From positions 1 through 35,047 of the IMG/VR virus record IMGVR_UViG_2534682060_000007: a stretch of 35,047 nucleotides of DNA; one strand, written 5' to 3'. Origin of the DNA: a virus (taxonomy: Duplodnaviria; Heunggongvirae; Uroviricota; Caudoviricetes). A program made the position numbers and the translations under genes. Below, in pieces: positions 2 to 35,047 of the stretch. Below the pieces are notes generated by a model. The model saw only the letters and a program-made list of their open reading frames with translations. It was not told the origin of the DNA and ran no database searches. The stretch's first letter is position 1, and each line of letters opens with the position of its first letter.

Positions 2-442
2 AAAGAAGTGCGTCTGCGTAATGCTTACGTCATTAAGGCTGAACGCGTGGAGAAAGATGCCGAAGGCAATATCACCACCATCTTCTGTACCTACGATGCC
101 GATACTTTAAGCAAAGATCCGGCAGATGGTCGTAAAGTGAAAGGCGTTATCCACTGGGTAAGCGCGGCCCATGCGCTGCCGGTTGAAATTCGCCTGTACG
201 ACCGTCTGTTCAGTGTACCGAACCCAGGTGCTGCGGATGATTTCCTGTCGGTGATTAACCCGGAATCGCTGGTGATCAAACAGGGCTTTGCTGAACCGTC
301 GCTGAAAGAAGCGGTAGCGGGTAAAGCATTCCAGTTTGAGCGTGAAGGTTATTTCTGCCTCGACAGCCGCCATTCCACGGCGGAAAAACCGGTATTTAAC
401 CGCACCGTTGGGCTGCGTGATACCTGGGCGAAGTTAGGTTAA
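2..442 (+). CDS. glnS: glutaminyl-tRNA synthetase, 3' end (ORF runs off left edge of window)
   Basis: Frame open from position 2; C-terminal sequence ...[30 protein letters not shown]...[15 protein letters not shown] recognised as enterobacterial GlnS anticodon-binding region; TAA stop 440-442. Confidence 0.7.
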
Positions 443-2958: not shown

Positions 2959-2970
2959 GTCTCACCATTT

Positions 2971-3004
2971 GTGTTAGAAAATACATATTAATTATCTAAC
3001 ACAA
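2971..3004. promoter_or_regulatory. operator-like inverted pair of the recurring TGTTAGA motif (site 1)
   Basis: GTGTTAGAAAAT at 2971-2982 and inverted TATCTAACACA at 2994-3004, in the 60-bp gap upstream of rdgC start. Confidence 0.45.
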
Positions 3005-3017
3005 ATGGGTGCATTTT

Positions 3018-3671
3018 CTATCCTTTCTTGAAATCGAAGTTGCTAGCAGTGGCCTGAAAGGTTCCTCCTGCCTTGAAAGCTATGTCTCCGTTAGCGGTGA
3101 CAGCAATATTTTCCCCTTTAACATTGATGTTGTTGGCTGATTTGACGTTAACACTCCCTCCTGCATTCACGATTACATCAGCCGGACCAATGATATATAT
3201 CTGCCCGGACTCATTCATGCCAATCCTTGAGCCTGCTGCCGTATTGGCAATTTCATAGCCGCCACCAGCAGTTCGTACTTCAAGAATATTGTTGCGGTGA
3301 ATAACGAAGTCTTTCGTTGCTGAGATTTGGGGGCGGGGAGGTGCTCCATCTACTTCCGGCGGCGTCCAGCCGTTGCCTTTGCCAGATGCTTCTGGTGCAA
3401 CGTTTGGAATTCCTCCCGGTGCATCCTGAGCGGCACCAACTATCATTGGGCGTCTGGTGTCTATTCGACCGTTAACATCTAAATAAGGAAACTCTACCCA
3501 GACCAGGTCACCTTTGACTGTGGGTACAAAAGCGTTTCCGATGGGTAACAGGTATTCCGCCCAGGGTAGATCGTCATCAGGAACGCCATTCCAGTCAGGT
3601 AAAACACGGACTTGAGCACGCATAAGCCCTGCCGGGTGCACAGTTCCAACAATTTGCGCTCTACGCTTCAT
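3018..3671 (-). CDS. baseplate-spike-like protein (gpV/gp5-type OB-fold N-terminus plus beta-helical repeat C-terminus)
   Basis: N-terminal pattern GTV...VRV...W...P.G...P..GD.V.V.F reminiscent of P2 gpV/Mu gp45 OB-fold; C-terminal G/N/V-rich repeats (VIVNAGGSVNVKSANNINVKGENIAVTANGDIAFKAGG); start overlaps stop of upstream gene. Confidence 0.5.
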   Translation of the reverse strand: MKRRAQIVGTVHPAGLMRAQVRVLPDWNGVPDDDLPWAEYLLPIGNAFVPTVKGDLVWVEFPYLDVNGRIDTRRPMIVGAAQDAPGGIPNVAPEASGKGNGWTPPEVDGAPPRPQISATKDFVIHRNNILEVRTAGGGYEIANTAAGSRIGMNESGQIYIIGPADVIVNAGGSVNVKSANNINVKGENIAVTANGDIAFKAGGTFQATASNFDFKKG

Positions 3672-7497: not shown

Positions 7498-7641
7498 GTT
7501 TTGCGGTCTGGATGACCGCTGTTTTTATAAAAATAGATACTAGAAATTTGGTAGCATATATGAGTACAGATTCATCAATAAAGAAGGCAGCCGAATCAGA
7601 TAAAGAAAATGGGGGGGCCGATTGATGCCGCCAAGGATGTA

Positions 7642-8340
7642 ATGGAATATGTTATAAAGGATAAATTGTTTAATAAAGTATTTGCATATATTTTTATCTC
7701 GTTTTTAGTTGTTAATTGGCGAGATATATTAATACTAATTAAATCAAAAGAAGATATTCTTTATACACTATCAATAGTATTTGTTGGTGGCAAATTACCG
7801 TTTCTTGGTGGTGTTGTTTTATCACCGTGGGTTGCTCACTTTTTCTTGCCGTTTGTTTATGGCGTGATTGCGTCAATTGTGGCGCCAATAGTTACTCTAG
7901 CTGTATCTTACGTTACAACCAACATATATCATGAAATAAAATTTTTAGATGAAAATGCCTATGAAAATCAACTTAAAAAACAAGCAAAGAAAGCCAAAGA
8001 AAGAATTGATATTGAAATGAATGGTAAGTATAGCCAAAAAGTATTAGACGAAAGAAAAAAAGACCTGGAAGATATTGATAATGCGATTAAAAATAAACAA
8101 ATTAACTTTGATAAAAAAAGAAAAGAGTTTGCTGATAATATAAATTTAACATATGATAACATTCTCAGTTTAAGCGAATTATATAAGAATGGAGGGTTCA
8201 AAATTGAAAATCAGCAGGATTTATATAAATTCCTTTCTGCAGTAAAGGAATCATCATTCAATAACATAAATTTTGATAAATTATTCTCTGAAATTTCCCG
8301 CTTGCATTCTGAAATGCAAACTGATTTATCAGAAAAATGA
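7642..8340 (+). CDS. membrane protein with N-terminal TM helices and long K/E-rich coiled-coil C-terminus, in very AT-rich DNA
   Basis: Hydrophobic segments FAYIFISFLVVNW and LSIVFVGGKLPFLGGVVLSPWVAHFFLPFVYGVIASIVAPIVTLAVSYV; start placed at ATG 7642 with AAGGA RBS (ORF-table start 7609 lacks RBS). Confidence 0.55.
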   Translation: MEYVIKDKLFNKVFAYIFISFLVVNWRDILILIKSKEDILYTLSIVFVGGKLPFLGGVVLSPWVAHFFLPFVYGVIASIVAPIVTLAVSYVTTNIYHEIKFLDENAYENQLKKQAKKAKERIDIEMNGKYSQKVLDERKKDLEDIDNAIKNKQINFDKKRKEFADNINLTYDNILSLSELYKNGGFKIENQQDLYKFLSAVKESSFNNINFDKLFSEISRLHSEMQTDLSEK

Positions 8341-11141: not shown

Positions 11142-11765
11142 ATGAAGGATGGTGTAGTGAAGTTAAGGGTTTTAGGGGCCGCGCTCGCGGCTATGTTGGG
11201 ATGCGTATCTGCTAATACTGCCAATGCAACTGCGTTACCTGCACAATTCAGGGCAGGGCAGCAGGTTATGAATAACGCTGGTGGGGATCATTCACAAGCG
11301 GCCATTATGGACTTTTGCAAGAGGGAGGGCATTCCATTACGGCCTGTTGGAACTCAGTTTATTGGTAAAACTGACTTTTGCGTTTTTGCATATACAGCAT
11401 ATCTGACGGACAAAGCTATAACAAAAACAGGTTATTCAACCAAAGATACTCTTTCCAGATTAAGTCAGGGATGGCAGCAATTCGAAGTGTATCGCCAGCA
11501 AGGATTAGGTGAGTTATTGCAACCACTTTTTATGCTTGCGTTGGTGCCAGAGGGGCAGCAATTTTTGGTTAAAAAGGGAATGCTTCGCCAAAGTGATATT
11601 GCCGGGTTCGATAGCATGATGGCTTATGAGCGCAAACTAACCGAGCAGCGAAATAAAAAACCATCTGCTTCATGTGTGCAAAGTAAAACAGCAGAATACA
11701 GTGCAGTAGCCGGGCCTTTAGCCAAACAAATGGCAGAGCAATGGTGTAAAAAATACGGGCAATAA
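11142..11765 (+). CDS. secreted or lipoprotein-like hypothetical protein
   Basis: N-terminal signal peptide LRVLGAALAAMLGCVSANTANA; possible alternative GTG start at 11157 with better RBS. Confidence 0.55.
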   Translation: MKDGVVKLRVLGAALAAMLGCVSANTANATALPAQFRAGQQVMNNAGGDHSQAAIMDFCKREGIPLRPVGTQFIGKTDFCVFAYTAYLTDKAITKTGYSTKDTLSRLSQGWQQFEVYRQQGLGELLQPLFMLALVPEGQQFLVKKGMLRQSDIAGFDSMMAYERKLTEQRNKKPSASCVQSKTAEYSAVAGPLAKQMAEQWCKKYGQ

Positions 11766-11785
11766 GTTACGCAGCGGAGGCAGAA

Positions 11786-12178
11786 TTGAAAAGATTGGCT
11801 ATTGCTTTACTGGCGTCTTTCCCTTTGATCGCGAGCGCCGGAAATTTACAAGTTAAGTGCGGTCGGTTTGATATAAAAATCTATCCAGATGCCATATTTC
11901 TGAATGGGAATAAGGTTGATAACGCACACCGAAAAACTGAATCTGACGTAATGAGCTATGTGTTCCAGGAGTATGCGGAGATGGGGGGAACTTACACGCT
12001 GTACTCGCTGGATGTTCCTTCTCGCGGTGATATGACATTATCCCATCAATGGCAGAACGCCGATGGCGAAGCTCTGCGCGAGGTTAAAACAGAAAAATGT
12101 GGCACTTTCCATTCTTTTAAAGGGAAAGCGCCAAATGTTAAATCTGTGCTTGAAAAACAGCGCGCAGGTGAGCTTTAA
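11786..12178 (+). CDS. secreted hypothetical protein
   Basis: Signal peptide MKRLAIALLASFPLIASA followed by mature domain with two Cys. Confidence 0.6.
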   Translation: MKRLAIALLASFPLIASAGNLQVKCGRFDIKIYPDAIFLNGNKVDNAHRKTESDVMSYVFQEYAEMGGTYTLYSLDVPSRGDMTLSHQWQNADGEALREVKTEKCGTFHSFKGKAPNVKSVLEKQRAGEL

Positions 12179-12486
12179 ACACCTTTAACCACGGAGATGC
12201 CGTTCCCTGCACGATAGCGGCGGGGAACGGAATTCTCCATCAGGTCACGAATTACTCCCGCCTCATGTAGTTCCTCTGTTTCCCAGTATCTGTTTGTCAC
12301 CAGATCGAGGCTGGCTATGACCTTGTGCCGGTCATTAGGCATAGCCAATTTTTCTGCTATAACCATCAGTGAAAACTCTTCATCCAGTAGGATTTGATAC
12401 CAGACTTTTGACAGCTCCAACTCTCTAATGAGGGTGAAGCGCCGCTCAAGTGTGGCGGCAGAATAAGTGAAATCTATTTTTTTCAT
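12175..12486 (-). CDS. hypothetical protein downstream of antirepressor
   Basis: 103-aa ORF on same strand as antirepressor operon. Confidence 0.45.
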   Translation of the reverse strand: MKKIDFTYSAATLERRFTLIRELELSKVWYQILLDEEFSLMVIAEKLAMPNDRHKVIASLDLVTNRYWETEELHEAGVIRDLMENSVPRRYRAGNGISVVKGV

Positions 12487-16290: not shown

Positions 16291-16768
16291 AGGTTTAACG
16301 CCCGCACAACTGGCAGAGCGTAACGCTGAGTATGTAACGGAAATTTCCCGACTTGAGAAAGCGTGTGCTGCGCTGGCGGCGGAGAATGCTGGGCTGAAAC
16401 ATGCAATGGCTGTAACTCTTGAGCATGTGTCGGTCACGGATGCAGGTCAGGCCGGAGTTGCTGCAATGATTATCAACGATGCCCTGCACCACAGCGAAAC
16501 TCCAGCCACCGATGCTTTTCTGGCTGAAATTCGTGCGGCGGCTCGCAACGAGGGGATTAACTATACCGCAAGCCGTCTTGCTGCTGCTTTCAACCACGGA
16601 TTTATCAATAAGTCTTTACGTGAAGTTTTCGACGTTACGCGCATGATTCTGTCAGCGAAAGAAGAGTTGGCTAATGAACCGCACCCGATTGATGGCCTGT
16701 CCGGTGAATATGCGGAGAAATCCCTTGAAGAATGGGCGGAACAGATTCGCAAAGGAGCTGACAAGTGA
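16280..16768 (+). CDS. paralogous coiled-coil early protein (Ea22-like family), copy 1
   Basis: Coiled-coil LEKACAALAAENAGLK and C-terminal domain shared with 17172-17969 and 17966-18607 (TD.FL.E......EG....A.R....GFI...........ARMIL...E...N, ...IRKG). Confidence 0.6.
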   Translation: MKSEGLTPAQLAERNAEYVTEISRLEKACAALAAENAGLKHAMAVTLEHVSVTDAGQAGVAAMIINDALHHSETPATDAFLAEIRAAARNEGINYTASRLAAAFNHGFINKSLREVFDVTRMILSAKEELANEPHPIDGLSGEYAEKSLEEWAEQIRKGADK

Positions 16769-17175
16769 AGAGGATGATTTTTGTGGCGGCATTGCTGACC
16801 ATTACCCAACAGGCGCAGGCTTCAGCAGTTATTGTGGCATCTACCGCCGCGACCACGGCTGCTGTAGCTGCTGCGAACTCTGCGAATATCGCAAACCAAC
16901 AGTCACAGCGTGCTGCCAATGCATCAGCCAGTGTTCACCCAATCGCCATTAAGGCCAGCAAGAAAAATATAGGTTTCATAACATGCGGCAAACGTTCTGA
17001 CGAGGCTGTAGGTTCACTTGGATGTACGGTATATGGGGATAGTGAGAGTAGAGAAATTCCATGGAAAACGTGGCCCGGATATGTTCTCGGCTCGAAGCTC
17101 CCTGCCAGCTATGAAGTAAACGCCGTATCGTTTGATCACTATAACGGCGTGGCAACGGTCTATTTTGCATATTGA
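16765..17175 (+). CDS. secreted hypothetical protein
   Basis: Signal peptide MKRMIFVAALLTITQQAQA; ATGA overlap with upstream gene. Confidence 0.5.
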   Translation: MKRMIFVAALLTITQQAQASAVIVASTAATTAAVAAANSANIANQQSQRAANASASVHPIAIKASKKNIGFITCGKRSDEAVGSLGCTVYGDSESREIPWKTWPGYVLGSKLPASYEVNAVSFDHYNGVATVYFAY

Positions 17176-17969
17176 GGCTCCGCATGAAATTCTCCAAATT
17201 TTCTGAGTTGGTGAATCGTATTTTGTCCAACAACCACAGCCATCGTCGCGATATGGATGTAACGATCGTTGTTCATTCGCCTGGCAGCATTGGTTCAACA
17301 CCCTCAGTTGAGGTTCAGTCAATTCACGCTGGTTTTGATTGGGATTCCGGGAAAGTGCTGATTTTCCCAGCACAGCCACTGACTACGCTAACACCAGAAC
17401 AGATTACTGATATTACTGATAGTGTGCGCAAAGGTCAGTCCTGGCACGCATATCAGGAATATAAGAAGCATAAAGAGCAGTTGGAAAAATTATCGATTGA
17501 ACTTGATACCGCAAAACAGCGCATTGCAGAGCTGGAGGGTAATCGCGCGGCGCTGGCTGCGGAGAATGCGAGACTGAAGGCGATATGTGAGGATCGCCGC
17601 ACGTTCATTATGAATGGCGTGCAGCTTGGTTTTATCAAAGTGCCAACAGTGGAAATAGATCCAGCTCTTGAAACAATTCGTATCGCCCTATCACCACAAA
17701 AAACCACTCCTGCGACCGACACTTTCCTGGATGAAGTGAAGACTGAAGCACGCAAGGAGGGCGCTTACTTTGTGGCGAACAGAATGCTGGCTGCTTGGGA
17801 AGCTGGTTTTATTGATGATACTGCGAAGAACGCCGCGGATATTGCCCGGATGATTCTTACCTCTACTGAGTTTATGGCTAATGCGCGGGAAGGCGATTTT
17901 GACCGCTCATTCTCTGATGGCGTTCTCGAAGATATCGCTGAACAGCTTCGCAAAGGAGGCAGCCAGTGA
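17172..17969 (+). CDS. paralogous coiled-coil early protein (Ea22-like family), copy 2
   Basis: Coiled coil AKQRIAELEGNRAALAAENARLK plus shared C-terminal domain ending EQLRKGG. Confidence 0.6.
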   Translation: MRLRMKFSKFSELVNRILSNNHSHRRDMDVTIVVHSPGSIGSTPSVEVQSIHAGFDWDSGKVLIFPAQPLTTLTPEQITDITDSVRKGQSWHAYQEYKKHKEQLEKLSIELDTAKQRIAELEGNRAALAAENARLKAICEDRRTFIMNGVQLGFIKVPTVEIDPALETIRIALSPQKTTPATDTFLDEVKTEARKEGAYFVANRMLAAWEAGFIDDTAKNAADIARMILTSTEFMANAREGDFDRSFSDGVLEDIAEQLRKGGSQ

Positions 17970-21435: not shown

Positions 21436-21451
21436 TGAGGTGGATCAAAAA

Positions 21452-22138
21452 ATGAAAGAACGCGGGATGATTTTTAACGATGAGATGGTCAGGGCCATCC
21501 TCGAAGGAAGGAAAACGCAGACGCGGCGGATAATGAAAAATCAGCCTGCGGAAGTTGGTCCAGAAGCACCAGTGATGGTTAGAAAAATTGGTGCAGGTTT
21601 TCAGTGGTACGGGGCTGATGGTGTAAGCAGTGTTTTCAATTGCCCCTTTGGTATCGTCGGCGATCGAATTTGGGTTCGTGAAACATGGGCGATATTAGGC
21701 AATGAAGATGGTTGCAGTGTGGACTGGAACGACAACCTTTGTCGTGACGATGAGAAGAACGCAGCAAGGATTTATCGGGCCAGTTGTGAGCAAAAGCCTG
21801 GTGATTACGGTTTGTGGTCGATACCCGATGATGCCGACTGGAAACCTCACACTGTGAATGAAAAGTTTGATGGCGGGTGGCGTCCATCAATTCACATGCC
21901 GCGCTGGGCTTCGCGTATTTTGCTGGAAATTACCGACGTGCGTGTGGAACGGCTGCGTGATATGAGCGAGGCAGATGCTAACGCAGAAGGCGCATCTCCG
22001 GCGATGTACAAAATTACGCCGCCGGAAGCTGTTTATCGCGTTGGTTTTGGTGATATCTGGCGCAGTATTTACGGGCAGGATAACTGGCTATCTAACCCGT
22101 GGGTATGGGTAATCGAGTTTAAGCGCGTTCAGGAATAA
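21452..22138 (+). CDS. ASCH/PUA-like domain protein
   Basis: N-terminal MVRAILEGRKTQTRR resembles the ASCH GxKxxExR motif (imperfect); start ATG 21452. Confidence 0.5.
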   Translation: MKERGMIFNDEMVRAILEGRKTQTRRIMKNQPAEVGPEAPVMVRKIGAGFQWYGADGVSSVFNCPFGIVGDRIWVRETWAILGNEDGCSVDWNDNLCRDDEKNAARIYRASCEQKPGDYGLWSIPDDADWKPHTVNEKFDGGWRPSIHMPRWASRILLEITDVRVERLRDMSEADANAEGASPAMYKITPPEAVYRVGFGDIWRSIYGQDNWLSNPWVWVIEFKRVQE

Positions 22139-22141
22139 ACC

Positions 22142-23020
22142 GTGAGTATGCATCAAGTTGTCAGCTTTTCAGGTGGACGAACATCGGCTTATCTCGTTCA
22201 TCTGATGGAAGCACAGCGAAAAGCTGGCGCTAGCGTCCATTTCATTTTTATGGATACCGGCTGTGAACATCCTCTGACGTATCGCTTTATTCGTGAGGTT
22301 GTGAAGTTCTGGAACGTACCGCTAACGGTGTTGCAGGTCGATATAAATCCAGAACTTGGGCAGCCAAATGGTTATACGGAATGGGAACCAAAGGATATTC
22401 AGACGCGAATGCCGGTGCTTAAACCGTTTATGGACATGGTTAAAAAGTACGGTACGCCTTACATCGGCGGCGCGTTCTGTACTGACAGGCTAAAACTCAC
22501 CCCTTTCACGAAATATTGCGATGACCATTTTGGGCGAGGGAATTACATCACATGGCTGGGTATTCGTGCGGACGAACACCGTAGGCTGAAACCGAAACCG
22601 GGCGTCCGGTATCTTGCAGAACTGTCAGATTTTGATAAGTCGGATGTTATTCGGTGGTGGCGAAAACAACCTTTTGATTTGCAAATCCCGGAGCACCTCG
22701 GGAACTGTGTTTTTTGCATCAAAAAGTCAACGCAAAAGCTGGGGCTTGCATGTAAAGACGAACCTGGTCTGATGCGGGTTTTTAATGAACTGGTTACAGG
22801 CAAACACGTCAGGGATGGTCATCGCAGAACAGGTAAAGACGTTATGTACCGTGGTCACCTGACGCTTGACGGGATTGCCAGAATGTATGCCGACAGCGAC
22901 TACAGAAATTTGTATCAGGCGATGGTGCAGGCCAAGCGGTTTGATACTGGTTCGTGTTCCGAATCATGTGAAATCTGGGGTGACCAATTGGAGTTGAAAT
23001 TCGAAGAGGTAGTGGTATGA
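22142..23020 (+). CDS. phosphoadenosine-phosphosulfate (PAPS) reductase-family protein
   Basis: PP-loop VVSFSGGRTSAYL near N-terminus; several Cys clusters toward C-terminus. Confidence 0.7.
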   Translation: MSMHQVVSFSGGRTSAYLVHLMEAQRKAGASVHFIFMDTGCEHPLTYRFIREVVKFWNVPLTVLQVDINPELGQPNGYTEWEPKDIQTRMPVLKPFMDMVKKYGTPYIGGAFCTDRLKLTPFTKYCDDHFGRGNYITWLGIRADEHRRLKPKPGVRYLAELSDFDKSDVIRWWRKQPFDLQIPEHLGNCVFCIKKSTQKLGLACKDEPGLMRVFNELVTGKHVRDGHRRTGKDVMYRGHLTLDGIARMYADSDYRNLYQAMVQAKRFDTGSCSESCEIWGDQLELKFEEVVV

Positions 23021-23583
23021 CAAACAAAATTGACTATCAAAAACTTCGTGAAATCGCTGAAAAAACAAAAATTGCTGGTGAAGCACCTGTAATGCCTTTC
23101 GATCAGCGAATTAATGCGCTTAACGATTTTATGAAGCACTTTTCGCCAGATATCGCGCTGGCATTGTTGGATGAACGGGAAAGAAACCAGCAATACATCA
23201 AACGCCGCGACCAGGAGAACGAGGAAATTGCGCTAACGGTAGGGAAGCTGCGTGTTGAGCTGGAAGCCGCAGAGAAGCGCATTGCAGAACTGGAAGCACG
23301 GGAAATAAAACCAGCCAAAGGCGAAGTTCTTGTCGTTGTTTCTGGTTTTACTGGTTGCGGAAAAAGCGCCATCGCCGGGGAAATAGAAATTGCGATGAAA
23401 GCTATTGGTGTGCCGGTTCAATGGACTAATGGCGATGCAGAAAAGCATATGACCGGCGCTGACTGGCTGACAGCGATTGAGATGTACAAACCAACTGTGC
23501 GCATCGTGGAAGTTAATGTGCCACGCGTCGCTGGCATTTGCATCAAAGGAGACGCAGGAGAGCAAAACGATGAAAAACCGTAA
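23017..23583 (+). CDS. coiled-coil early protein related to the Ea22-like paralogs
   Basis: Shares LTVGKLRVELEAAEKRIAELE segment, also at DNA level, with 17966-18607. Confidence 0.55.
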   Translation: MTNKIDYQKLREIAEKTKIAGEAPVMPFDQRINALNDFMKHFSPDIALALLDERERNQQYIKRRDQENEEIALTVGKLRVELEAAEKRIAELEAREIKPAKGEVLVVVSGFTGCGKSAIAGEIEIAMKAIGVPVQWTNGDAEKHMTGADWLTAIEMYKPTVRIVEVNVPRVAGICIKGDAGEQNDEKP

Positions 23584-23759: not shown

Positions 23760-24023
23760 ATGGCAACTTTAACAAAAAAAGAACGGGCATGGTTGAACGA
23801 ATTACAGGACGTTCTTGATCGCTGCCCATCACCGAAAAAAATTGGTTTTTACACCATTGGCGATAAAAGCATTTACCTGTATGACCTGCGCCGCATGGAT
23901 GAAATCATGGAGGCTCTTGATAATCGTTCGTCAATGGATTGGTGTGTTGCTGTCCATGATATGAATGCCGGATTTGAAGAAAAGATTTTGTTCCCCTCGT
24001 CAGTTGAAAGCACTGCGGGTTAA
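23760..24023 (+). CDS. small hypothetical protein
   Basis: ATG 23760 with AAAGGAGAG RBS. Confidence 0.5.
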   Translation: MATLTKKERAWLNELQDVLDRCPSPKKIGFYTIGDKSIYLYDLRRMDEIMEALDNRSSMDWCVAVHDMNAGFEEKILFPSSVESTAG

Positions 24024-24033
24024 GGAGTAACAC

Positions 24034-24480
24034 ATGACCACTATTACCAAAGAGCGACTGCTGACAATCAGGCAGTGGCGCGAAACATACGGACCTGGTA
24101 GCAACGTTGTACTGCCAGCAGAAGAAGCGGAAGAACTGGCGCGGATTGCGCTGGCATCGCTGGAAGCAGAACCGATGGCATGGCGATATCGCTACGTGAA
24201 AAAAGGCATTACGGACTCACAGGGGGAGCCGTGGGTTGGTGACTGGAAATATGTACCGACAAAAGAGGATTGCAACGACAGACCGAACTATGAAATTCAG
24301 GCGTTATTCACTGCCCCGCCTGTGCCACTGACACCAGAAGGATTGATTAAAGCAGTGCGCTTCTATGAACAGGTTAAGCGTGAAAATCCGCCAGTCGAAA
24401 CCGGAGCATGGAAAGACGCTGTTGACTGGGTGCTCAAAGAGGCTTGCCAGGCTGTAAACATTGGCATCAAAGGAGAGTGA
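24034..24480 (+). CDS. hypothetical protein (paralog of 24619-25113 N-terminus)
   Basis: Shares IALASLEAEP segment with the next gene. Confidence 0.55.
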   Translation: MTTITKERLLTIRQWRETYGPGSNVVLPAEEAEELARIALASLEAEPMAWRYRYVKKGITDSQGEPWVGDWKYVPTKEDCNDRPNYEIQALFTAPPVPLTPEGLIKAVRFYEQVKRENPPVETGAWKDAVDWVLKEACQAVNIGIKGE

Positions 24481-24482
24481 GG

Positions 24483-24608
24483 ATGTTCAATAATTTGCCT
24501 GGTACTGGTTTTTTCGTTGTTTTCGGTGTCATTTGCGCCGTTATTGGTTGGGCAGTTATTGAGTCCATTCTTTGGCTGCTTTCTTTCATTCACATAACTA
24601 TTGGTTGA
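24483..24608 (+). CDS. candidate small membrane peptide (41 aa)
   Basis: ATG with GGAG RBS; translation MFNNLPGTGFFVVFGVICAVIGWAVIESILWLLSFIHITIG; not in ORF table. Confidence 0.3.
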   Translation: MFNNLPGTGFFVVFGVICAVIGWAVIESILWLLSFIHITIG

Positions 24609-24618
24609 GAACTGACCC

Positions 24619-25113
24619 ATGACCACTTTCACCGACAAAGAACTGATTAAAGAAATCAAAGAACGCATAGGCAGCCTGGACGTTCGAGACAATATTGAGC
24701 GCCGTGCTTATGAAATTGCACTGGCATCACTGGAAGCAGAACCGGTGGTTTACATGTGGGATAGCGAAAGAAAAGATATTGATGCCCCTGGGTATTATCG
24801 GACTGAGCATTTAGTGTTCGCTGAGAGTAGTGTTAAGCAATGGGGAGGGCGAGTTGTTCCACTTTACACCGCCCAGCCAGTGCCGGTAACTCCGGATGGT
24901 TGGATAAGCTGTAGTGAGCGGATGCCTGAAAAGAACCAGAACGTGCTTATTTCGGTGAATTTCGATAGCTCTCTGGTTGAACCGCTAATATGCTCCGCAC
25001 GCTATACCGGAAGCACCTTTCGGCGCGGAGATGCAACGATTAAGCCGGGTAATGGTATTGAGCAAGCAACTCACTGGATGCCGCTACCGGAACCGCCGCA
25101 GGAGGCGAAATGA
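24619..25113 (+). CDS. hypothetical protein (paralogous N-terminus, distinct C-terminal domain)
   Basis: 164-aa ORF in operon. Confidence 0.55.
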   Translation: MTTFTDKELIKEIKERIGSLDVRDNIERRAYEIALASLEAEPVVYMWDSERKDIDAPGYYRTEHLVFAESSVKQWGGRVVPLYTAQPVPVTPDGWISCSERMPEKNQNVLISVNFDSSLVEPLICSARYTGSTFRRGDATIKPGNGIEQATHWMPLPEPPQEAK

Positions 25114-25370
25114 TGGATGTAAAAGAGAAGGTTTTGCAGGTGATGCGTTCCCGGGCTGCCCTGCAAGATAAAGCTCTCGGCGGGGAATATCCATTCAGGA
25201 TGGCAACCTGGAATCTGCGGTTGGCAATGGAGAAGGAATTTCCTGATGAAGAATGGCGTTCGGCAGATTTGCGCAAAATTCTTATGGAGCTGGCTAAAGA
25301 CGGAACAGTATCCAAAGATACCCATGCCAGCCGGATTGGTCAGGCGGTATGGAGACTGGAGGTGAGGTAA
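25110..25370 (+). CDS. hypothetical protein
   Basis: 86-aa ORF, ATGA overlap with neighbours. Confidence 0.45.
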   Translation: MMDVKEKVLQVMRSRAALQDKALGGEYPFRMATWNLRLAMEKEFPDEEWRSADLRKILMELAKDGTVSKDTHASRIGQAVWRLEVR

Positions 25371-25651
25371 TGGCTAACCTGCAACTTGCCGTTAAAGGTG
25401 AATACTTCGATGCCATGATTCGAGGGGAGAAAACGGAAGAGTATCGCCTGTGTAATGACTACTGGAATAAGCGCCTCGTTAACCGTAAGTATGACCGCCT
25501 GATTATCACAAAGGGATATCCGAAGCGCGAAGACTTCAGTCGCAGAATTGACGTCCCGTATAACGGATATGAAATAAAAACAATCACACATCCGCACTTC
25601 GGTGATAAACCGGTAAAGGTGTTCGCGATAAAAGTGAAGATTAATAGCTAA
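25370..25651 (+). CDS. small ASCH-like protein
   Basis: MIRGEKTEEYR matches GxKxxExR; start at internal ATG 25370 (MANLQLAV...). Confidence 0.55.
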   Translation: MANLQLAVKGEYFDAMIRGEKTEEYRLCNDYWNKRLVNRKYDRLIITKGYPKREDFSRRIDVPYNGYEIKTITHPHFGDKPVKVFAIKVKINS

Positions 25652-25674
25652 ATTTCAATTAACACGGAGTAATT

Positions 25675-25968
25675 ATGTGGCGCGGTAATAATCATGGCGG
25701 AAGCCAGATGATACTTACCGAATATACTTTCGACCACAAAACCAATAAATCACGTTCAGTATATTTGCTTCGGCACAATAGCCGCGTAAGAAATACCGTG
25801 CTGGAGCAAAATCTGACCGTCGAAATGGATAATTTAGGAAACTTCAAGCCAACAATATCGCTTGATGATTTTCCGTGTGGTTTAAGCGAAAGAGAAGCAA
25901 TGCTGAAATTAGCAGAATGGTTACAAAGATTAAGCATTGCTATTGAAGATAACTGGATTCAACCATAA
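25675..25968 (+). CDS. hypothetical protein
   Basis: 97-aa ORF in AT-rich stretch with CGGAG RBS. Confidence 0.4.
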   Translation: MWRGNNHGGSQMILTEYTFDHKTNKSRSVYLLRHNSRVRNTVLEQNLTVEMDNLGNFKPTISLDDFPCGLSEREAMLKLAEWLQRLSIAIEDNWIQP

Positions 25969-25992
25969 TGAAAAACAGAAAGAAAGATTGCT

Positions 25993-26202
25993 ATGGCAAC
26001 ATTTAGTAAATTCGCAGTAATTATTATTTTATTAATTCCCCTCACTGTTACAGCAGGGGAACAGCAACATTGCACAAAAGAGAATGAACACCCTTTCATC
26101 GTTATTCAATGCGATGACGGAACGGTGACTGTGGTTAATGTAAGAAATGACCGTGTAGCTGTTTGCCGTAAAGGCGAACCATGCAAGGAAATAAAACTAT
26201 GA
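25993..26202 (+). CDS. small secreted protein
   Basis: Signal peptide MATFSKFAVIIILLIPLTVTAG, mature part with 4 Cys. Confidence 0.45.
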   Translation: MATFSKFAVIIILLIPLTVTAGEQQHCTKENEHPFIVIQCDDGTVTVVNVRNDRVAVCRKGEPCKEIKL

Positions 26203-26948
26203 CAAGAATCACTAAAGAGCGTATTTCAGATATTATTTCCCGTATCGAAATGTATGGTCACGGTGCTGGATACACAGCAGATGAAGTATTGGAACTTGCC
26301 AAAATAGCTTTAGCGCCTTGCAAGGATGGTAAAGCTATGACACTGATTGACTTGTTAGTGAAGGAATTATCTAAGGGGCATGGATGGCCTGATGGAAAAG
26401 ATTTTTGCCATCTATCCATTACGATGCCAGGTAGTAGTCGCGCTACGGTTCTTTTTGGTACGCGCCATAAAAATTACCAATCATCAAAGAATTATTCCAT
26501 TGATGGCATTATTTGCGATATCAGTGACCTTGATCGCAGTGCGTTTACATCGGTTGTCACTCGTGAACAGTATGAAGCAGCTCGCATAGCGTCTCAGAAA
26601 GTCAAGTCTGAAAGTAAGGCTTACAAGTTAGATTTTGAGCAATGGCTGGAGCAGCAACGCGGGGAAATCGATGTGGACTGCGGTTGTGTGTCTGCGGAAA
26701 CATTCATGCACTGGTTGCGGGTAGCTTATGAGGCTGGGAACCATCCGGTTCTTCCGGATGGTTCCCAACAAGCGCCCAGGAAAAGCGTAAAAACCACTCT
26801 GGAAAGAGGCTATCTTGAGGCCGCATTAAAGATTAAGCCGGGCCATACGCTAGGCGTCATTGATGCCATGTTGGTTCATGAAATGGCTAAGGCTTTATTG
26901 CCGCTGGTGGCTGATAAACATGAGGCGGGCCATGCCAACGAAAGCTGA
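26199..26948 (+). CDS. hypothetical protein
   Basis: Start at ATG 26199 (AAGGA RBS, ATGA overlap with upstream stop). Confidence 0.55.
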   Translation: MTRITKERISDIISRIEMYGHGAGYTADEVLELAKIALAPCKDGKAMTLIDLLVKELSKGHGWPDGKDFCHLSITMPGSSRATVLFGTRHKNYQSSKNYSIDGIICDISDLDRSAFTSVVTREQYEAARIASQKVKSESKAYKLDFEQWLEQQRGEIDVDCGCVSAETFMHWLRVAYEAGNHPVLPDGSQQAPRKSVKTTLERGYLEAALKIKPGHTLGVIDAMLVHEMAKALLPLVADKHEAGHANES

Positions 26949-30258: not shown

Positions 30259-30753
30259 TTATAACTTTTCGTACTGAAGCGGTGAACGCTTAATTTCAAA
30301 GTGGCCTTCCGATGTGCTACCAAAGCCACCAGCACCACGTTCCGTTTCGTTGAGTTCCTCAACCTCGACTAGTGAGACTTGTTCAACACGCTCAAAAATT
30401 CCTTGCATGACAGCCATTCCAGGCTTGAGACAAACGCCTTCCCCGCCGGGATCAGTAATCAGTTTTGCCATGATTTCACCGCGATAATCGGAGTCGATAA
30501 TTCCTACGCAGTTAGCCAGGCGAGTATGTTTTTTGCAGCCCAATCCGGATCGCGGATAGAGTTTCAGACACCAGCCGGGCGGGATCTCCATAGCCAGTCC
30601 GGTATACACCCACCAGCTTGAGGAAATTGCACCATTGCTATCGACGCATGGTTTTATTTCAACAGCCTCAAAATCCATCGCCGCCGATCCGGAGGTGGCA
30701 TAAGCTGGAAGTTTTGCTGCCGGATGTAGGCGTTTCACTTTTACGTAAATCAT
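30259..30753 (-). CDS. dut: dUTP diphosphatase
   Basis: dUTPase motifs AYATSGSAAMDF, RSGLG, IIDSDYRGEI, RGAGGFGSTS. Confidence 0.85.
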   Translation of the reverse strand: MIYVKVKRLHPAAKLPAYATSGSAAMDFEAVEIKPCVDSNGAISSSWWVYTGLAMEIPPGWCLKLYPRSGLGCKKHTRLANCVGIIDSDYRGEIMAKLITDPGGEGVCLKPGMAVMQGIFERVEQVSLVEVEELNETERGAGGFGSTSEGHFEIKRSPLQYEKL

Positions 30754-31226
30754 TGTTTTTTAGCTCTCTGCGTGAAGGTGTAAACCCGACGTTTGATATG
30801 TGGAACGGTAGGAACAGGAAGACAGGAACTTTCAATAACCCCTTGCCCCTCCAGCGATCGCACCGCCCGCAAGAACTGCGACGTGTCGCCGCCAAACTGG
30901 CGGGCATAGGTGCTGCCGTTATGAAGTATTTGAGCTATTACCCGAGCTTTTGTCTGGCTGTCACGATATGCGAATAGCCGCACGGCCTCTTCTGGCGCAA
31001 TCGCTAACTGATAGCCTTTCCCGGCACGGTGTCGAATGAATCCATGCGCCAGTAGGTTTTTGAGTTCGTTACGAGTGCGAACAGATCCGTAATCCAGGAA
31101 GTGTGGATTGATAACGACTGGCTTAAACCATTCCGTAGGTGCTTTAGCTAATAGAGCTAACAGCTTCCCGGATAATTCTGGATAGGAAGACGGGTAACAA
31201 TTCAGAGATGGGTAATAAGTTTTCAC
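30750..31226 (-). CDS. hypothetical protein
   Basis: 158-aa ORF, ATGA-type overlap with dut. Confidence 0.5.
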   Translation of the reverse strand: MKTYYPSLNCYPSSYPELSGKLLALLAKAPTEWFKPVVINPHFLDYGSVRTRNELKNLLAHGFIRHRAGKGYQLAIAPEEAVRLFAYRDSQTKARVIAQILHNGSTYARQFGGDTSQFLRAVRSLEGQGVIESSCLPVPTVPHIKRRVYTFTQRAKKQ

Positions 31227-31567
31227 CGACGCCCCCTTGCAGGATATCGACCTGCATTAGTATCCGGTGCAATAAAGCCGGTAGTGGGGCGAGTGAAAGC
31301 GAGATTAATCTTCTCGACCATAGTGCGATAATTTTCCTGATAGTGGGCCAGGAGTTTTTCGGCGGCAATGATGGTTACTTTCCGGACGTAGCTTTCTGCT
31401 TCCTCCAGATTTCGCCAGTTTTTTTCGAGGGTAAACACAGGGACGGCCTCAAGCCCGGTCATGATGCCGAACACAACGACAGCATGACTGTTCTTAACAC
31501 CAGCGGCGAAGGTTACGGTGTAACAATCCACCTTGAAGCGTCTTGATTCCGTGATTTGACTCTGCAA
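31223..31567 (-). CDS. hypothetical protein
   Basis: 114-aa ORF, first gene after motif site 5. Confidence 0.5.
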   Translation of the reverse strand: MQSQITESRRFKVDCYTVTFAAGVKNSHAVVVFGIMTGLEAVPVFTLEKNWRNLEEAESYVRKVTIIAAEKLLAHYQENYRTMVEKINLAFTRPTTGFIAPDTNAGRYPARGRR

Positions 31568-31621
31568 AGCACCCTCCTAAATAGGCGAGGGTACTTTACA
31601 GCAAAGGCGTCAATCTAAAAA

Positions 31622-31640
31622 GATGTGTTAGAAATTTAAT
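31622..31640. promoter_or_regulatory. recurring motif site 5 (GATGTGTTAGAAATTTAATT)
   Basis: In the 73-bp gap between the Cre-like gene and the downstream operon. Confidence 0.4.
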
Positions 31641-32669
31641 TTACGAATCCATCAGGCGGCTATTAGCCCCCACAGACACGCCGCCACGGCGAAGATACCG
31701 CATAAGTGTTTCCGGTTTCTTCCAGGTTCCTTCCTGCATGATCTCCACCATAGACACCTGCTTTTCAGCCATATCAATAGCGGCCCCGACACGTGCACTA
31801 TGCCCGGTCCACGTCCGGTATCTTCCTTTGTTTGGCGTAGCATCTCTTTTATTCAGCAACACCCAGGCGTCGCTGAATATTTTCTCCATTGCAGGTGCAG
31901 TAAGGGGCGTTGTCGTGATCCTGGCCTTATTGCTACGGTGTATCGGCGGGAACAGCACTGCGTCAGGATGTTCGCGAAGCCCGGAAACATCCAGCCAGTC
32001 ATTCAGCACAGCGGTAGTGCGACGGGAAAGCACCTTATCAAGCCCGGCGGCGGTCGTTATTGTCTTCGTGTGTGAAATATGTAGCGTGACAGTGTCACCT
32101 GTTTGGTCCAGATCTCCTACACGAATACGCGAGATTTCCGACATACGCATCAGCGTATTGTATGCAACAAAGAGAAAAGCCCGGTTGCGCAGGTCCACCA
32201 GCCGTTCTGACCTGGACAACAGGACGTCGAGCAGTTTCAGATCGTCCCACCGCAGCGGTATAGCCTGGCCTGTTCGTTCGCCTTTTTCAGTTGCCGCTTC
32301 GCGCCGGATGCGCCGCATAGCCAGAGAAACACTTTTATCATCCGAAAGTGGCGGAAGACCACAATGCGAAAGCAGCATGTTCAGCATGGCGTAGTGCTTA
32401 TCAATGGTGGTCGAAGCCAGATCGGCATCATGCAGCTGAAGAAAATACTCGCGGGCCATTTCTGGTGAGATCGGAAACCAGGCAAGCTGGCGAGCGTGAC
32501 ACCAGCGCGCCCAGGAATGAAACACCAACCGGAGGTCGCGCAGAGTATTCGGCGCATAAGCCCCCTGGTCATTCATGAACCGCATAAAGTTTTCTGCGGC
32601 TTCCTGGTACTCTTTGCCAATGTTGCGCAGAAAACCACCGGAACTGCCAGAGATAATTAATTCACTCAT
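31641..32669 (-). CDS. Cre-like tyrosine site-specific recombinase
   Basis: Collinear similarity to P1 Cre as recalled: SWARWC, WFP, VSLAMRRIRRE, AYNTLMRMSEISRIRVGDL, HISHTKT, WTGHSARVGAAIDMA, EIMQEGTW, catalytic Tyr in LMRYLRR. Confidence 0.85.
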   Translation of the reverse strand: MSELIISGSSGGFLRNIGKEYQEAAENFMRFMNDQGAYAPNTLRDLRLVFHSWARWCHARQLAWFPISPEMAREYFLQLHDADLASTTIDKHYAMLNMLLSHCGLPPLSDDKSVSLAMRRIRREAATEKGERTGQAIPLRWDDLKLLDVLLSRSERLVDLRNRAFLFVAYNTLMRMSEISRIRVGDLDQTGDTVTLHISHTKTITTAAGLDKVLSRRTTAVLNDWLDVSGLREHPDAVLFPPIHRSNKARITTTPLTAPAMEKIFSDAWVLLNKRDATPNKGRYRTWTGHSARVGAAIDMAEKQVSMVEIMQEGTWKKPETLMRYLRRGGVSVGANSRLMDS

Positions 32670-32820
32670 GAAACTATTTCACCTCTATATACAGATGACG
32701 CTACGCGAAAAATATAAAAATGACAGGGTAGCTATAAGTTAATTTTCAAAATACAAGCCTTTGATTCGAGGCACGTATTTTCAGTGATGTCAACACTGTT
32801 CATCTACACATGATTATAGC

Positions 32821-32854
32821 CTAACTTTAAATAATGCCAATTATTTAAAGTTAT
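32821..32854. other. candidate lox-like recombination site (13-bp inverted arms, 8-bp spacer)
   Basis: CTAACTTTAAATA-ATGCCAAT-TATTTAAAGTTAT; arms match 12/13 to each other and 10/13 to the loxP arm ATAACTTCGTATA; about 150 bp upstream of the Cre-like start. Confidence 0.45.
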
Positions 32855-33032
32855 AAAATGGCGATTTTTTTTAATCCATCACAGATTGATTGCTGACCAG
32901 TAACACGTTGCCTTCATGGTCTTTAATTTGCGAAGCGTGGTTTATACAGTTGGTTTTCTAAAATTGATGACAAAAAATCACAGTTCGATCCTTTACTCAC
33001 TCTGTTATTCGACATAAATTTGTCATAGTAAT

Positions 33033-33052
33033 TTTATGTTAGAAAACTAAAT
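33033..33052. promoter_or_regulatory. recurring motif site 6 (TTTATGTTAGAAAACTAAAT)
   Basis: About 13 bp upstream of the 33065 start codon; a related TTTTCTAAAATTGA lies at about 32955-32970. Confidence 0.4.
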
Positions 33053-33064
33053 CGAGTAGGAATA

Positions 33065-34102
33065 ATGAGTAAGAAGTCGATCGAGAAAGAGTACAAACGG
33101 TTCCTGCAAACCGCTGAACGGTGGAAAGAGCTGGTGGTCGCAAACTCTGTTTTCCATGATACCAGTTATGCTGGCGAGGAATTCCGCCATGTTGCATTAA
33201 CGCATGACCAAAACATATTAGAAGAAGCTGAAAAATGTCTTGCTGAATGGAAAGCCTTCGTTGACATGTGCCGCGATGCCGACGGCAAAGCGTCGAACAT
33301 TGTTGAGTCTGTATATTCTCCGATCCCATTCATCATTGAGGACACCAATCAAAGCACGCATGTTGTTGTGCAAAGCGCTACAACAACACGTACATTTACA
33401 CGTGAACAATTGCTCAAAAAATACGACAAAATCATAAAGAAAAGCCTGAAAAATAGGGTTTTTTCTCAAATCGTAGGTGCTCTTGAAGAAGAACAGCGCT
33501 TCTTTGAAGCTGAGCCTGAAGGCGAGATCTACCGGGCGCGTAAAGAGGCATATACAGATGTTGTGCTGACAACAAACATCGAAGGCAGCAATGCCCTTTC
33601 TCGCTTTAGAGTTGGCGCACATGGCGCATTGGTTTTCGCAAAACTACCGAAGACAACAATCCCCGTTGTCAATAATGTTGGTGAGCGCCGGAGCATTACA
33701 ATTTATTCTGGCGTCGAATCGGTACCTTGCAGCCTTCTCGGCGATTTTAACTTATATCGTGTTCGTGACCTGGAAAAACACCAGCCAAGCTACGTTGCGA
33801 AGTCGTACATCTTAAGGAACATCGATATTCGCAATGAAAGCCTTAAGCAGAAATCCGCTAAGATGCTGGAGGATGCCGATCCGGCTATTCGCCATATCAT
33901 TGAGCGTAAGATACGTACATCACGTGAAGCAATGGCAAGGCTGGATAAAATGGATCTGGAATTGTTAGACGTAATGATGGCCTCTGGAGACGACCTGACC
34001 GGCATAAAACTGAATGAAGCTCGTAAAAAATACGGCAAAGCAATCGAAGAACGTTACGGATACACATTCCCCCAAACGCAGTACGCCGCGAAGCTCTGGT
34101 AA
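33065..34102 (+). CDS. hypothetical protein (345 aa) between the lox-like site and terminase
   Basis: Isolated gene flanked by AT-rich intergenic DNA and a terminator hairpin; no recognisable catalytic motif. Confidence 0.6.
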   Translation: MSKKSIEKEYKRFLQTAERWKELVVANSVFHDTSYAGEEFRHVALTHDQNILEEAEKCLAEWKAFVDMCRDADGKASNIVESVYSPIPFIIEDTNQSTHVVVQSATTTRTFTREQLLKKYDKIIKKSLKNRVFSQIVGALEEEQRFFEAEPEGEIYRARKEAYTDVVLTTNIEGSNALSRFRVGAHGALVFAKLPKTTIPVVNNVGERRSITIYSGVESVPCSLLGDFNLYRVRDLEKHQPSYVAKSYILRNIDIRNESLKQKSAKMLEDADPAIRHIIERKIRTSREAMARLDKMDLELLDVMMASGDDLTGIKLNEARKKYGKAIEERYGYTFPQTQYAAKLW

Positions 34103-34111
34103 TCACAACCG

Positions 34112-34137
34112 GCCCCGCATCGCGGGGCTTTATATAT
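34112..34137. terminator. terminator hairpin between convergent genes
   Basis: Stem gccccgc/gcggggc with 3-nt loop followed by TTTATATAT. Confidence 0.45.
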
Positions 34138-35047
34138 CCAGATCCGGCATTTCGATATCCGCCAGAACCTGATCTCGGAAAGTTGCCATTTCGGCACCAA
34201 TATCTTCATTAGCAGGCACATAGTCCACCAGCATAGTGAAGCAGTAGGTATCCCATCGGTCAGGCGATTTGATGTTTAGCTTTTGCCGCATGTGCTCTTT
34301 GCGCATCATCGCCATTTTCCCTTCTTCATTCAGTAAAAAGGGTATTTTTGACGCTTGCTCTGCCGTTTTAGGGTCACTGTCTATCCGCATACGCCCTGAC
34401 TTTATGGCATCTCGCGCCATAATATTTGCGTAGGCACGCTGATTAACAAATCGCTCCCTGTCTTTGTTCGCAAACATGGGTTTTCCCCACCGAATACGTA
34501 CCGGGTTCGCACCACGACGCACCAACTGCGCACACGTATCAGAACCAAAACCATCAGCATCAACCGCGATTGTTATATTCGGGTATTTTTCCGGCGTACA
34601 TTCGTTATATATGAAGTCAGCAAAGGCCAATGGGTCCATAGTGCCAGGCATCTCCATTACCTTAAAGTTAACAACGCGCCGCTTATCCCTGTGACCAGAT
34701 ACCTTGCAGATGTTGAGGACCGACTTATCTCGCCCATTACCAACGTCAGCCGTTGCCACCCATCCCCAGTTTTTCTCCAACAACACCTTGCGGCGAGCAG
34801 CGCGATCGCATTCATCACGACCAAGCAAATAGCCGTTAATTTCTCGTGGGAACTGACCAAGCACCTTGACCATGTACTCAATAGAATCGCGCCCGCCATA
34901 TTCCAGAAGCTTCTGCTTGATGAATTGTGGTGTGACGAACGGTGATTCTTCCGAGTTAAGAACAATTGCTGTCCAGATCCCTTTCGGGTTGTCTGGGGTT
35001 TTTGCTTGAGAATGGTGCGAATCGTAGAAATAACCACTTGGCCTTGT
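34130..35047 (-). CDS. terminase large subunit, C-terminal nuclease region (N-terminus beyond right edge)
   Basis: Frame open to the window edge; C-terminal IAVDADGFGSD and SPDRWD acidic motifs consistent with a terminase RNaseH-like nuclease domain. Confidence 0.5.
   Translation of the reverse strand, partial: TRPSGYFYDSHHSQAKTPDNPKGIWTAIVLNSEESPFVTPQFIKQKLLEYGGRDSIEYMVKVLGQFPREINGYLLGRDECDRAARRKVLLEKNWGWVATADVGNGRDKSVLNICKVSGHRDKRRVVNFKVMEMPGTMDPLAFADFIYNECTPEKYPNITIAVDADGFGSDTCAQLVRRGANPVRIRWGKPMFANKDRERFVNQRAYANIMARDAIKSGRMRIDSDPKTAEQASKIPFLLNEEGKMAMMRKEHMRQKLNIKSPDRWDTYCFTMLVDYVPANEDIGAEMATFRDQVLADIEMPDLDI

Follow-up and report, generated by a model that had tools for sequence, protein, structure and literature searches.

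The question raised by this locus is whether a recombinase gene and the palindrome beside it form a new system that joins phage DNA to a chromosome, or a known one that belongs to a plasmid prophage. The stretch of DNA analysed here (the window) is 35,047 nucleotides long and comes from a virus of the Caudoviricetes (IMG/VR record IMGVR_UViG_2534682060_000007). A preliminary description, made from the letters of the window, had recognised a Cre-like recombinase with a lox-like palindrome in a P1-like gene order. It proposed that the pair may be a novel lox variant, on DNA contiguous with chromosomal glnS, serving integration, dimer resolution or cyclisation. The features needed to answer the question are listed below; all positions are those of the window.

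2 to 442, plus strand: 3′ end of glnS, for glutaminyl-tRNA synthetase (orf62 of phage D6); frame-2 translation, last 146 codons
31641 to 32669, minus strand: dre, for the Dre tyrosine recombinase, a homologue of Cre; 342 amino acids plus stop, ATG at 32669
32822 to 32853, no strand: rox, the 32-bp target of Dre; exact match to the annotated rox of D6
32822 to 32835 and 32840 to 32853: the two rox arms, 14 bp each, a perfect inverted repeat
32836 to 32839: the rox core, GCCA, 4 bp, asymmetric
33065 to 34102, plus strand: c1, for the prophage repressor; divergent from dre across rox, and annotated as c1 in AY753669 and MF356679
34130 to 35047, minus strand: pacB, for the terminase large subunit; 3′ part only, convergent with c1 and running off the window end

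Identity and activity of the recombinase and its site

The protein encoded at 31641-32669 is, by its sequence, a member of the tyrosine recombinase superfamily and falls within the Cre subgroup. Its Pfam match to Phage_integrase (PF00589) scores 62.6 bits (cut-off, 27.1), and its match to the N-terminal SAM-like DNA-binding domain (PF02899) scores 21.6 bits, slightly below the cut-off of 22.3. Against the Cre chains in PDB the match has E=5e-69 and spans residues 22-341. In a global alignment with Cre, 40% of positions are identical and the catalytic set is complete: R175, E178, K202, H290, R293, W316 and Y325, aligned respectively with R173, E176, K201, H289, R292, W315 and Y324 of Cre. The collinearity with Cre that the preliminary description had noted in the conserved blocks, the H-x-x-R motif and the tyrosine included, is borne out by this alignment, and the active-site residues of Dre are given in the literature at matching positions (PMC4777119). 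The PDB search (2026 copy, queried with window 31644-32669, minus strand) returned only Cre and Cre-derived (Tre) chains and no Dre structure; Dre is widely used as a tool, yet is without a structure of its own among these matches.

A megablast search of phage records with window 31500-33100 gives Escherichia phage D6 as the sole match, at 97.4% identity. The annotations of AY753669 beneath the match read "dre: tyrosine recombinase", "region of crossover (rox) site for Dre recombinase" and "c1". The window translation is identical to Dre of D6 (AAV84949.1) at all 342 amino acids, and window 32822-32853 is identical to the misc_recomb feature 'rox' of AY753669 at 32 of 32 positions. The same site is the coordinate origin of the complete D6 genome MF356679, as lox is in P1. 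The rox site has been printed together with its two native flanking bases, (A)TAACTTTAAATAAT TGGC ATTATTTAAAGTTA(G) (PMC3082901); reverse-complemented, it equals window 32821-32854 exactly, both flanking bases included.

The neighbourhood agrees as well. The order dre (minus), rox, c1 (plus), pacB (minus) is that of AY753669; C1 is identical to that of D6 at 344 of 345 amino acids and the C-terminal 305 residues of PacB at 304, and window 30445-35047 has 98.6% DNA identity with D6. Shared with D6 are thus the protein, the 32-bp rox, the flanking bases, the position between dre and c1, and a backbone with glnS, phd/doc, dut, c1 and pacB. The differences are that the DNA here is 97-98% identical and that the intergenic region, of 395 bp, departs from that of D6 by about 10 substitutions or indels. 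Because the protein (342/342), rox (32/32), the published flanking bases and the order pacB-c1-rox-dre all match D6, we regard it as practically certain that this locus holds Dre/rox, the site-specific recombination module of a D6-like phage-plasmid. It is an already known system and not a new lox variant: the novelty that had been proposed gives way before a protein that is 100% Dre and a site that is the exact rox of AY753669, MF356679 and the published record (PMC3082901).

Within dre, the window and D6 differ at 24 nucleotides. All of these differences are synonymous, with 0 of 342 amino acids changed, a pattern that indicates strong purifying selection. Such selection is unusually strict for a phage accessory gene.

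Dre/rox of phage D6 was reportedly described by Sauer and McDermott in 2004. As an orthogonal system it is now routinely paired with Cre/loxP to engineer the genomes of mice, cell lines and bacteria. Others have shown, on identical sequences, that Dre alone, acting on two rox sites, produces excision, inversion or co-integration. The recombination assay that the preliminary description put forward as a check has in effect already been published, with the identical protein and site and in E. coli. Dre recombines rox efficiently there, with no cross-reaction towards loxP, VloxP or SloxP (PMC3082901); in plasmid assays, wild-type roxP is recombined in full (PMC4777119); and recombination of rox by Dre is almost complete even without induction (PMC4957104).

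The rox site, its natural variants and a predicted promoter

The letters of rox in the window are TAACTTTAAATAAT-GCCA-ATTATTTAAAGTTA, or, undivided, TAACTTTAAATAATGCCAATTATTTAAAGTTA. The site lies upstream of dre, with 152 bp between it and the ATG at 32669, close to the distance of about 150 bp first estimated. The 34-bp string CTAACTTTAAATA-ATGCCAAT-TATTTAAAGTTAT, under which the palindrome had been reported, is present letter for letter at 32821-32854. Its division into 13-8-13, with arms matching at 12 of 13 positions, is arithmetically right, and the stronger symmetry is the perfect 14-4-14. The latter corresponds to the description of rox as 14-bp arms with a 4-bp asymmetric spacer (PMC4777119). 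Mutagenesis in the same study found that compatibility depends most on the bases next to the 4-bp core (positions 2 and 7 of the 8-bp window ATGCCAAT), which suggests that the crossover region of rox is functionally about as long as that of loxP. Karimova et al. (PMC4957104) also aligned and compared rox as 13-8-13. That parse is a defensible functional alignment, though it understates the symmetry.

A chance palindrome was considered and ruled out. The expected number of perfect 14-bp inverted repeats at fixed spacing in the window is about 1.3e-4, no rox-like match within three mismatches appeared in 100 shuffles, and only five short-range inverted repeats of at least 12 nt, the rox palindrome among them, were reported in the 35-kb window. 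Elsewhere in the window no second rox-like site occurs within three mismatches.

Two further palindromes in the window may be recorded here. One, at 2965-3008, lies between the rdgC-like and baseplate genes and has 18-nt arms (94% complementary) with an 8-nt gap; the other, at 26735-26767, is a perfect GC-rich inverted repeat with 14-nt arms and a 5-nt gap.

The intergenic region between dre and c1 was aligned for five lineages: the window, D6 and three other relatives. In these three others, whose Dre proteins are 100%, 94% and 90% identical to that of the window, rox is 97%, 100% and 100% identical (31, 32 and 32 of 32 positions). Taken in the same order, the dre-side flank is 95%, 83% and 71% identical, and the 100 bp on the c1 side of rox are 47%, 32% and 46% identical. 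The site is a conserved island beside Dre homologues of 90-100% identity, with flanks that diverge. On the preliminary description's own account its reading hung in part on whether the palindrome is kept beside homologous recombinases; it is, at 31-32 of 32 positions.

Two natural variants of the site were found. The first, ATTATCTAAAGTTA, has one substitution in the c1-side arm; it occurs at 59442-59473 of NZ_CP173482.1, where Dre is 100% identical to that of the window, and has 28 exact copies among complete E. coli genome records. The second has the core GCCA replaced by ACTA and keeps both 14-bp arms intact. The example examined comes from Salmonella Typhi pK91 (NZ_CP029874.1; positions 3001-3032 of the excerpt taken from it), where the site adjoins a Dre homologue of 90% identity. 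The protein record of the 90%-identical homologue is WP_048659775.1. Further plasmids of Salmonella, Klebsiella and E. coli carry the same variant, which is a candidate for a naturally heterospecific site. These variants (arm substitution with Dre at 100%, ACTA core with Dre at 90%) may interest recombinase engineers, as may the possible promoter that overlaps rox. Its features are as follows.

32813 to 32840, minus strand: predicted sigma-70 promoter facing dre; 11 of 12 consensus positions, 16-nt spacer
32840 to 32835, minus strand: predicted -35, TTGGCA; overlaps the rox core and, on the c1 side, the inner edge of the arm
32818 to 32813, minus strand: predicted -10, TATAAT; just outside the dre-side arm

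This is the only strong promoter-like site facing dre, against a background of about 1.7 weaker matches per shuffle of the region. Its -10 columns are invariant in the five-lineage alignment. No relevant paper came up when the literature was searched for a promoter inside rox.

The promoter-like site raises the possibility that the palindrome serves chiefly in transcriptional control, as promoter or operator of the divergent dre/c1 region, and that its likeness to a recombination site is secondary. The 11/12 match with its -35 over the centre of rox, and the invariance of the -10 across lineages, would fit such a reading. However, recombination at the identical 32 bp by the identical protein has been demonstrated (PMC3082901, PMC4777119, PMC4957104), and in the ACTA-core lineage the spacer destroys the -35 match while both arms remain perfect, which suggests selection on the Dre-binding arms and not on the -35. 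We therefore consider a mainly regulatory palindrome very unlikely. A regulatory role of rox could only add to recombination, not replace it.

With Dre/rox as the recombination module, a second job for the site can still be imagined, although we hold it to be rather doubtful. Dre bound at rox may repress dre, since the predicted -35 lies over the rox core; and exchange at rox may shuffle the halves for immunity and packaging against those for recombinase and maintenance between co-resident D6-like phage-plasmids, since identity on the c1 side collapses a few bases beyond rox. As to the latter region (window 32854-32960), identity among lineages drops from a few bases past rox and recovers near the c1 promoter. 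The drop may mean that modular exchange has its boundary at rox, or the spacer may simply be hypervariable.

Genomic setting and the question of integration

D6-like phage-plasmids are temperate phages of the P1 type that are kept as plasmid prophages of about 90 kb. The glutaminyl-tRNA synthetase encoded by the window is presumably very close to the GlnS of the host. The first position of the window corresponds to D6 coordinate 61145, which falls within orf62 (59925-61586), annotated 'glutaminyl-tRNA synthetase, similar to E. coli GlnS'. The glnS fragment of the window is identical to the C-terminus of D6 orf62 at 144 of 146 amino acids and 416 of 441 nucleotides and has the same ...WAKLG end, and a methylase gene comes next after glnS in the window and in D6 alike. 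A glnS gene has been reported in all D6-like genomes, with the speculation that it is perhaps a plasmid-maintenance or fitness cargo gene (PMC6799933). The DNA that had been read as contiguous with chromosomal glnS (window 2-442) is accordingly the phage-plasmid's own gene, and no chromosome junction is found in the 35-kb window because the glnS end belongs to that gene.

The rest of the window follows D6 in the same way. Positions 1-24749 are collinear with D6 61145-83717, and the window as a whole is collinear with D6 61145-91159, through the rox origin and on to about 2200 (glnS to pacB). Several internal segments, of roughly 0.15-3 kb, are without a D6 match. The best overall matches of the window are E. 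coli and Salmonella plasmids of 89-96 kb, and with such phage-plasmids, of about 90 kb, it is collinear too. It is identical to no deposited record, but a mosaic with 95-99% identity to them, and is therefore best described as a new isolate of the D6-like family and not D6 itself. From the collinearity with D6 and from the relatives we infer that the DNA probably comes from a plasmid-borne element; the view ends at the window edges.

The segments without a D6 match include 7579-8311, 11194-12262, 16538-17963, 21438-23024 and 23765-26813. Some segments match lambdoid/Stx phages and P1-like phages instead of D6.

The integrative reading holds that the recombinase is that of a novel lox variant on chromosome-joined DNA near glnS, and that it integrates or excises the element at another copy of the palindrome, located in the chromosome. 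The exact rox 32-mer was searched in 5,426 complete E. coli genomes. It is present in 94, once per genome in every case (94/94), with 91 copies on plasmids and three on chromosomes. No second exact copy was found in any of these 94 rox-bearing genomes, as none was found in the window at three mismatches or fewer.

Two of the three chromosomal copies were inspected. Both are intact sites within mosaics of IS26, IS1, IS903 and Tn3, away from phage backbone. On the chromosome of E. coli CUVET18-789, the neighbour of rox is a dre homologue of full length, whose protein is 90% identical to Dre. On that of E. coli Z503 it has only a remnant of the dre region of about 300 bp, adjoining an IS91 transposase. 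Because the intact rox lies inside IS/Tn3 mosaics, these two copies appear to be fragments of a plasmid captured by transposons, which the sequences indicate in preference to rox-mediated integration. Intact rox is likewise found in an IS-rich mosaic (IS26, IS1, IS903B, Tn3) on 180-kb plasmids such as NZ_AP027761.1. The rox-bearing fragment moves along with resistance-region debris.

In the window itself rox is intact, with phage DNA on either side. Neither a second chromosomal core nor half-site junctions, which would mark an integrative phage integrase with attP and attB, were found in the window and the E. coli loci inspected, nor was a second exact rox in any of the 94 genomes that have one. 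In favour of integration stand the glnS 3′ end, which is truly present at window 2-442, and the three chromosomal copies among the 94. Against it stand the single copy of the exact site in every rox-bearing E. coli genome and the two inspected chromosomal sites, intact in IS26, IS1 and Tn3 mosaics, one with a dre homologue and one with a remnant. We judge integration by a novel lox variant to be extremely improbable.

The mosaics also bear on a different explanation, that the module is a decaying, non-functional remnant in a mosaic resistance region. Fragments with dre and rox, or with rox only, do occur in IS-rich mosaics on chromosomes and 180-kb plasmids. The window, however, has an intact reading frame for a protein 100% identical to active Dre, whose substitutions relative to D6 are all synonymous; no IS elements flank the module, and dut-dre-rox-c1-pacB stands within 35 kb of phage genes collinear with D6. 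A decayed remnant is ruled out by the intact 342/342 reading frame with its synonymous-only changes, and the probability that we leave to it is negligible.

The preliminary description therefore holds in part. Its Cre-like recombinase, lox-like site and P1 synteny stand; its novelty, chromosomal context and integration do not. The value of the check is a negative one, in that the glnS clue behind the integrative reading proves to be a cargo gene of the phage-plasmid.

Proposed natural role and comparison with P1 Cre/loxP and Panto/pox

Dre is a tyrosine recombinase of the Cre family, and the module works accordingly. Monomers of Dre bind the two 14-bp arms of rox, and two rox sites meet in a tetramer. 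Strand exchange takes place over the asymmetric centre of the sites; it passes through phosphotyrosyl intermediates at Tyr325 and a Holliday junction and needs no accessory factors. By analogy with P1 Cre/loxP, Dre acting at the single rox of the plasmid prophage would resolve dimers, formed by homologous recombination, to monomers before partition. After infection, Dre would circularise DNA that has been packaged by headful from the nearby pac site and whose terminal redundancy places rox in both ends, again as Cre does at loxP. The natural role of Dre/rox is thus likely to be dimer resolution and circularisation, on the model of P1. The second of these is supported by the geometry of rox and pacA, because it resembles that of P1 lox and pac: in D6, 2.8-4.2 kb separate rox from pacA, and in P1 the cleavage site of pac, which lies within pacA, is about 4 kb away from lox. 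Multimer resolution is the function annotated for the homologous module of pYU39_89, a D6-like plasmid (PMC6799933).

With P1 Cre/loxP the system shares the fold and the catalytic residues, 40% identity over the full length, and independence from accessory proteins. The synteny is also the same, lpa-pacA-pacB-c1 followed by the site and then the recombinase, with the site at the same distance class from pac. The order pacB, convergent c1, site and recombinase that had been likened to P1 is confirmed in the annotations of both P1 and D6. Reasoning of a similar kind, a scan for P1 synteny, has located Dre/rox in two E. coli genomes (PMC4957104).

The differences from P1 are as follows. The loxP site is ATAACTTCGTATA-ATGTATGC-TATACGAAGTTAT, a 13-8-13 arrangement, whereas the symmetry of rox is 14-4-14, and the two share 22 of 34 positions. 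With its protein 40% identical to Cre and its site at 22/34, the window does not carry P1 Cre/loxP proper. The systems are heterospecific, Dre being without action on loxP and Cre without action on rox (PMC3082901). Between c1 and lox, P1 alone has coi, imcB and imcA; its lox is about 420-436 bp upstream of cre, and the interval holds cra and three promoters of cre. A fourth promoter, P4cre, lies on the c1 side of lox, and none of the annotated cre promoters overlaps lox. In the window, by comparison, the c1 start is 211 bp and the dre start 152 bp from rox, no ORF lies between, and the predicted promoter overlaps rox.

A further known system is Panto/pox of Pantoea sp. aB (PMC4957104), which also consists of a Cre-like recombinase and a site whose arms are one base off those of rox. 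Each of the two recombinases, Panto and Dre, acts on rox as well as on pox (PMC4957104). Panto is 52% identical to Dre, however, and the spacer of pox differs, whereas the protein of the window is Dre itself.
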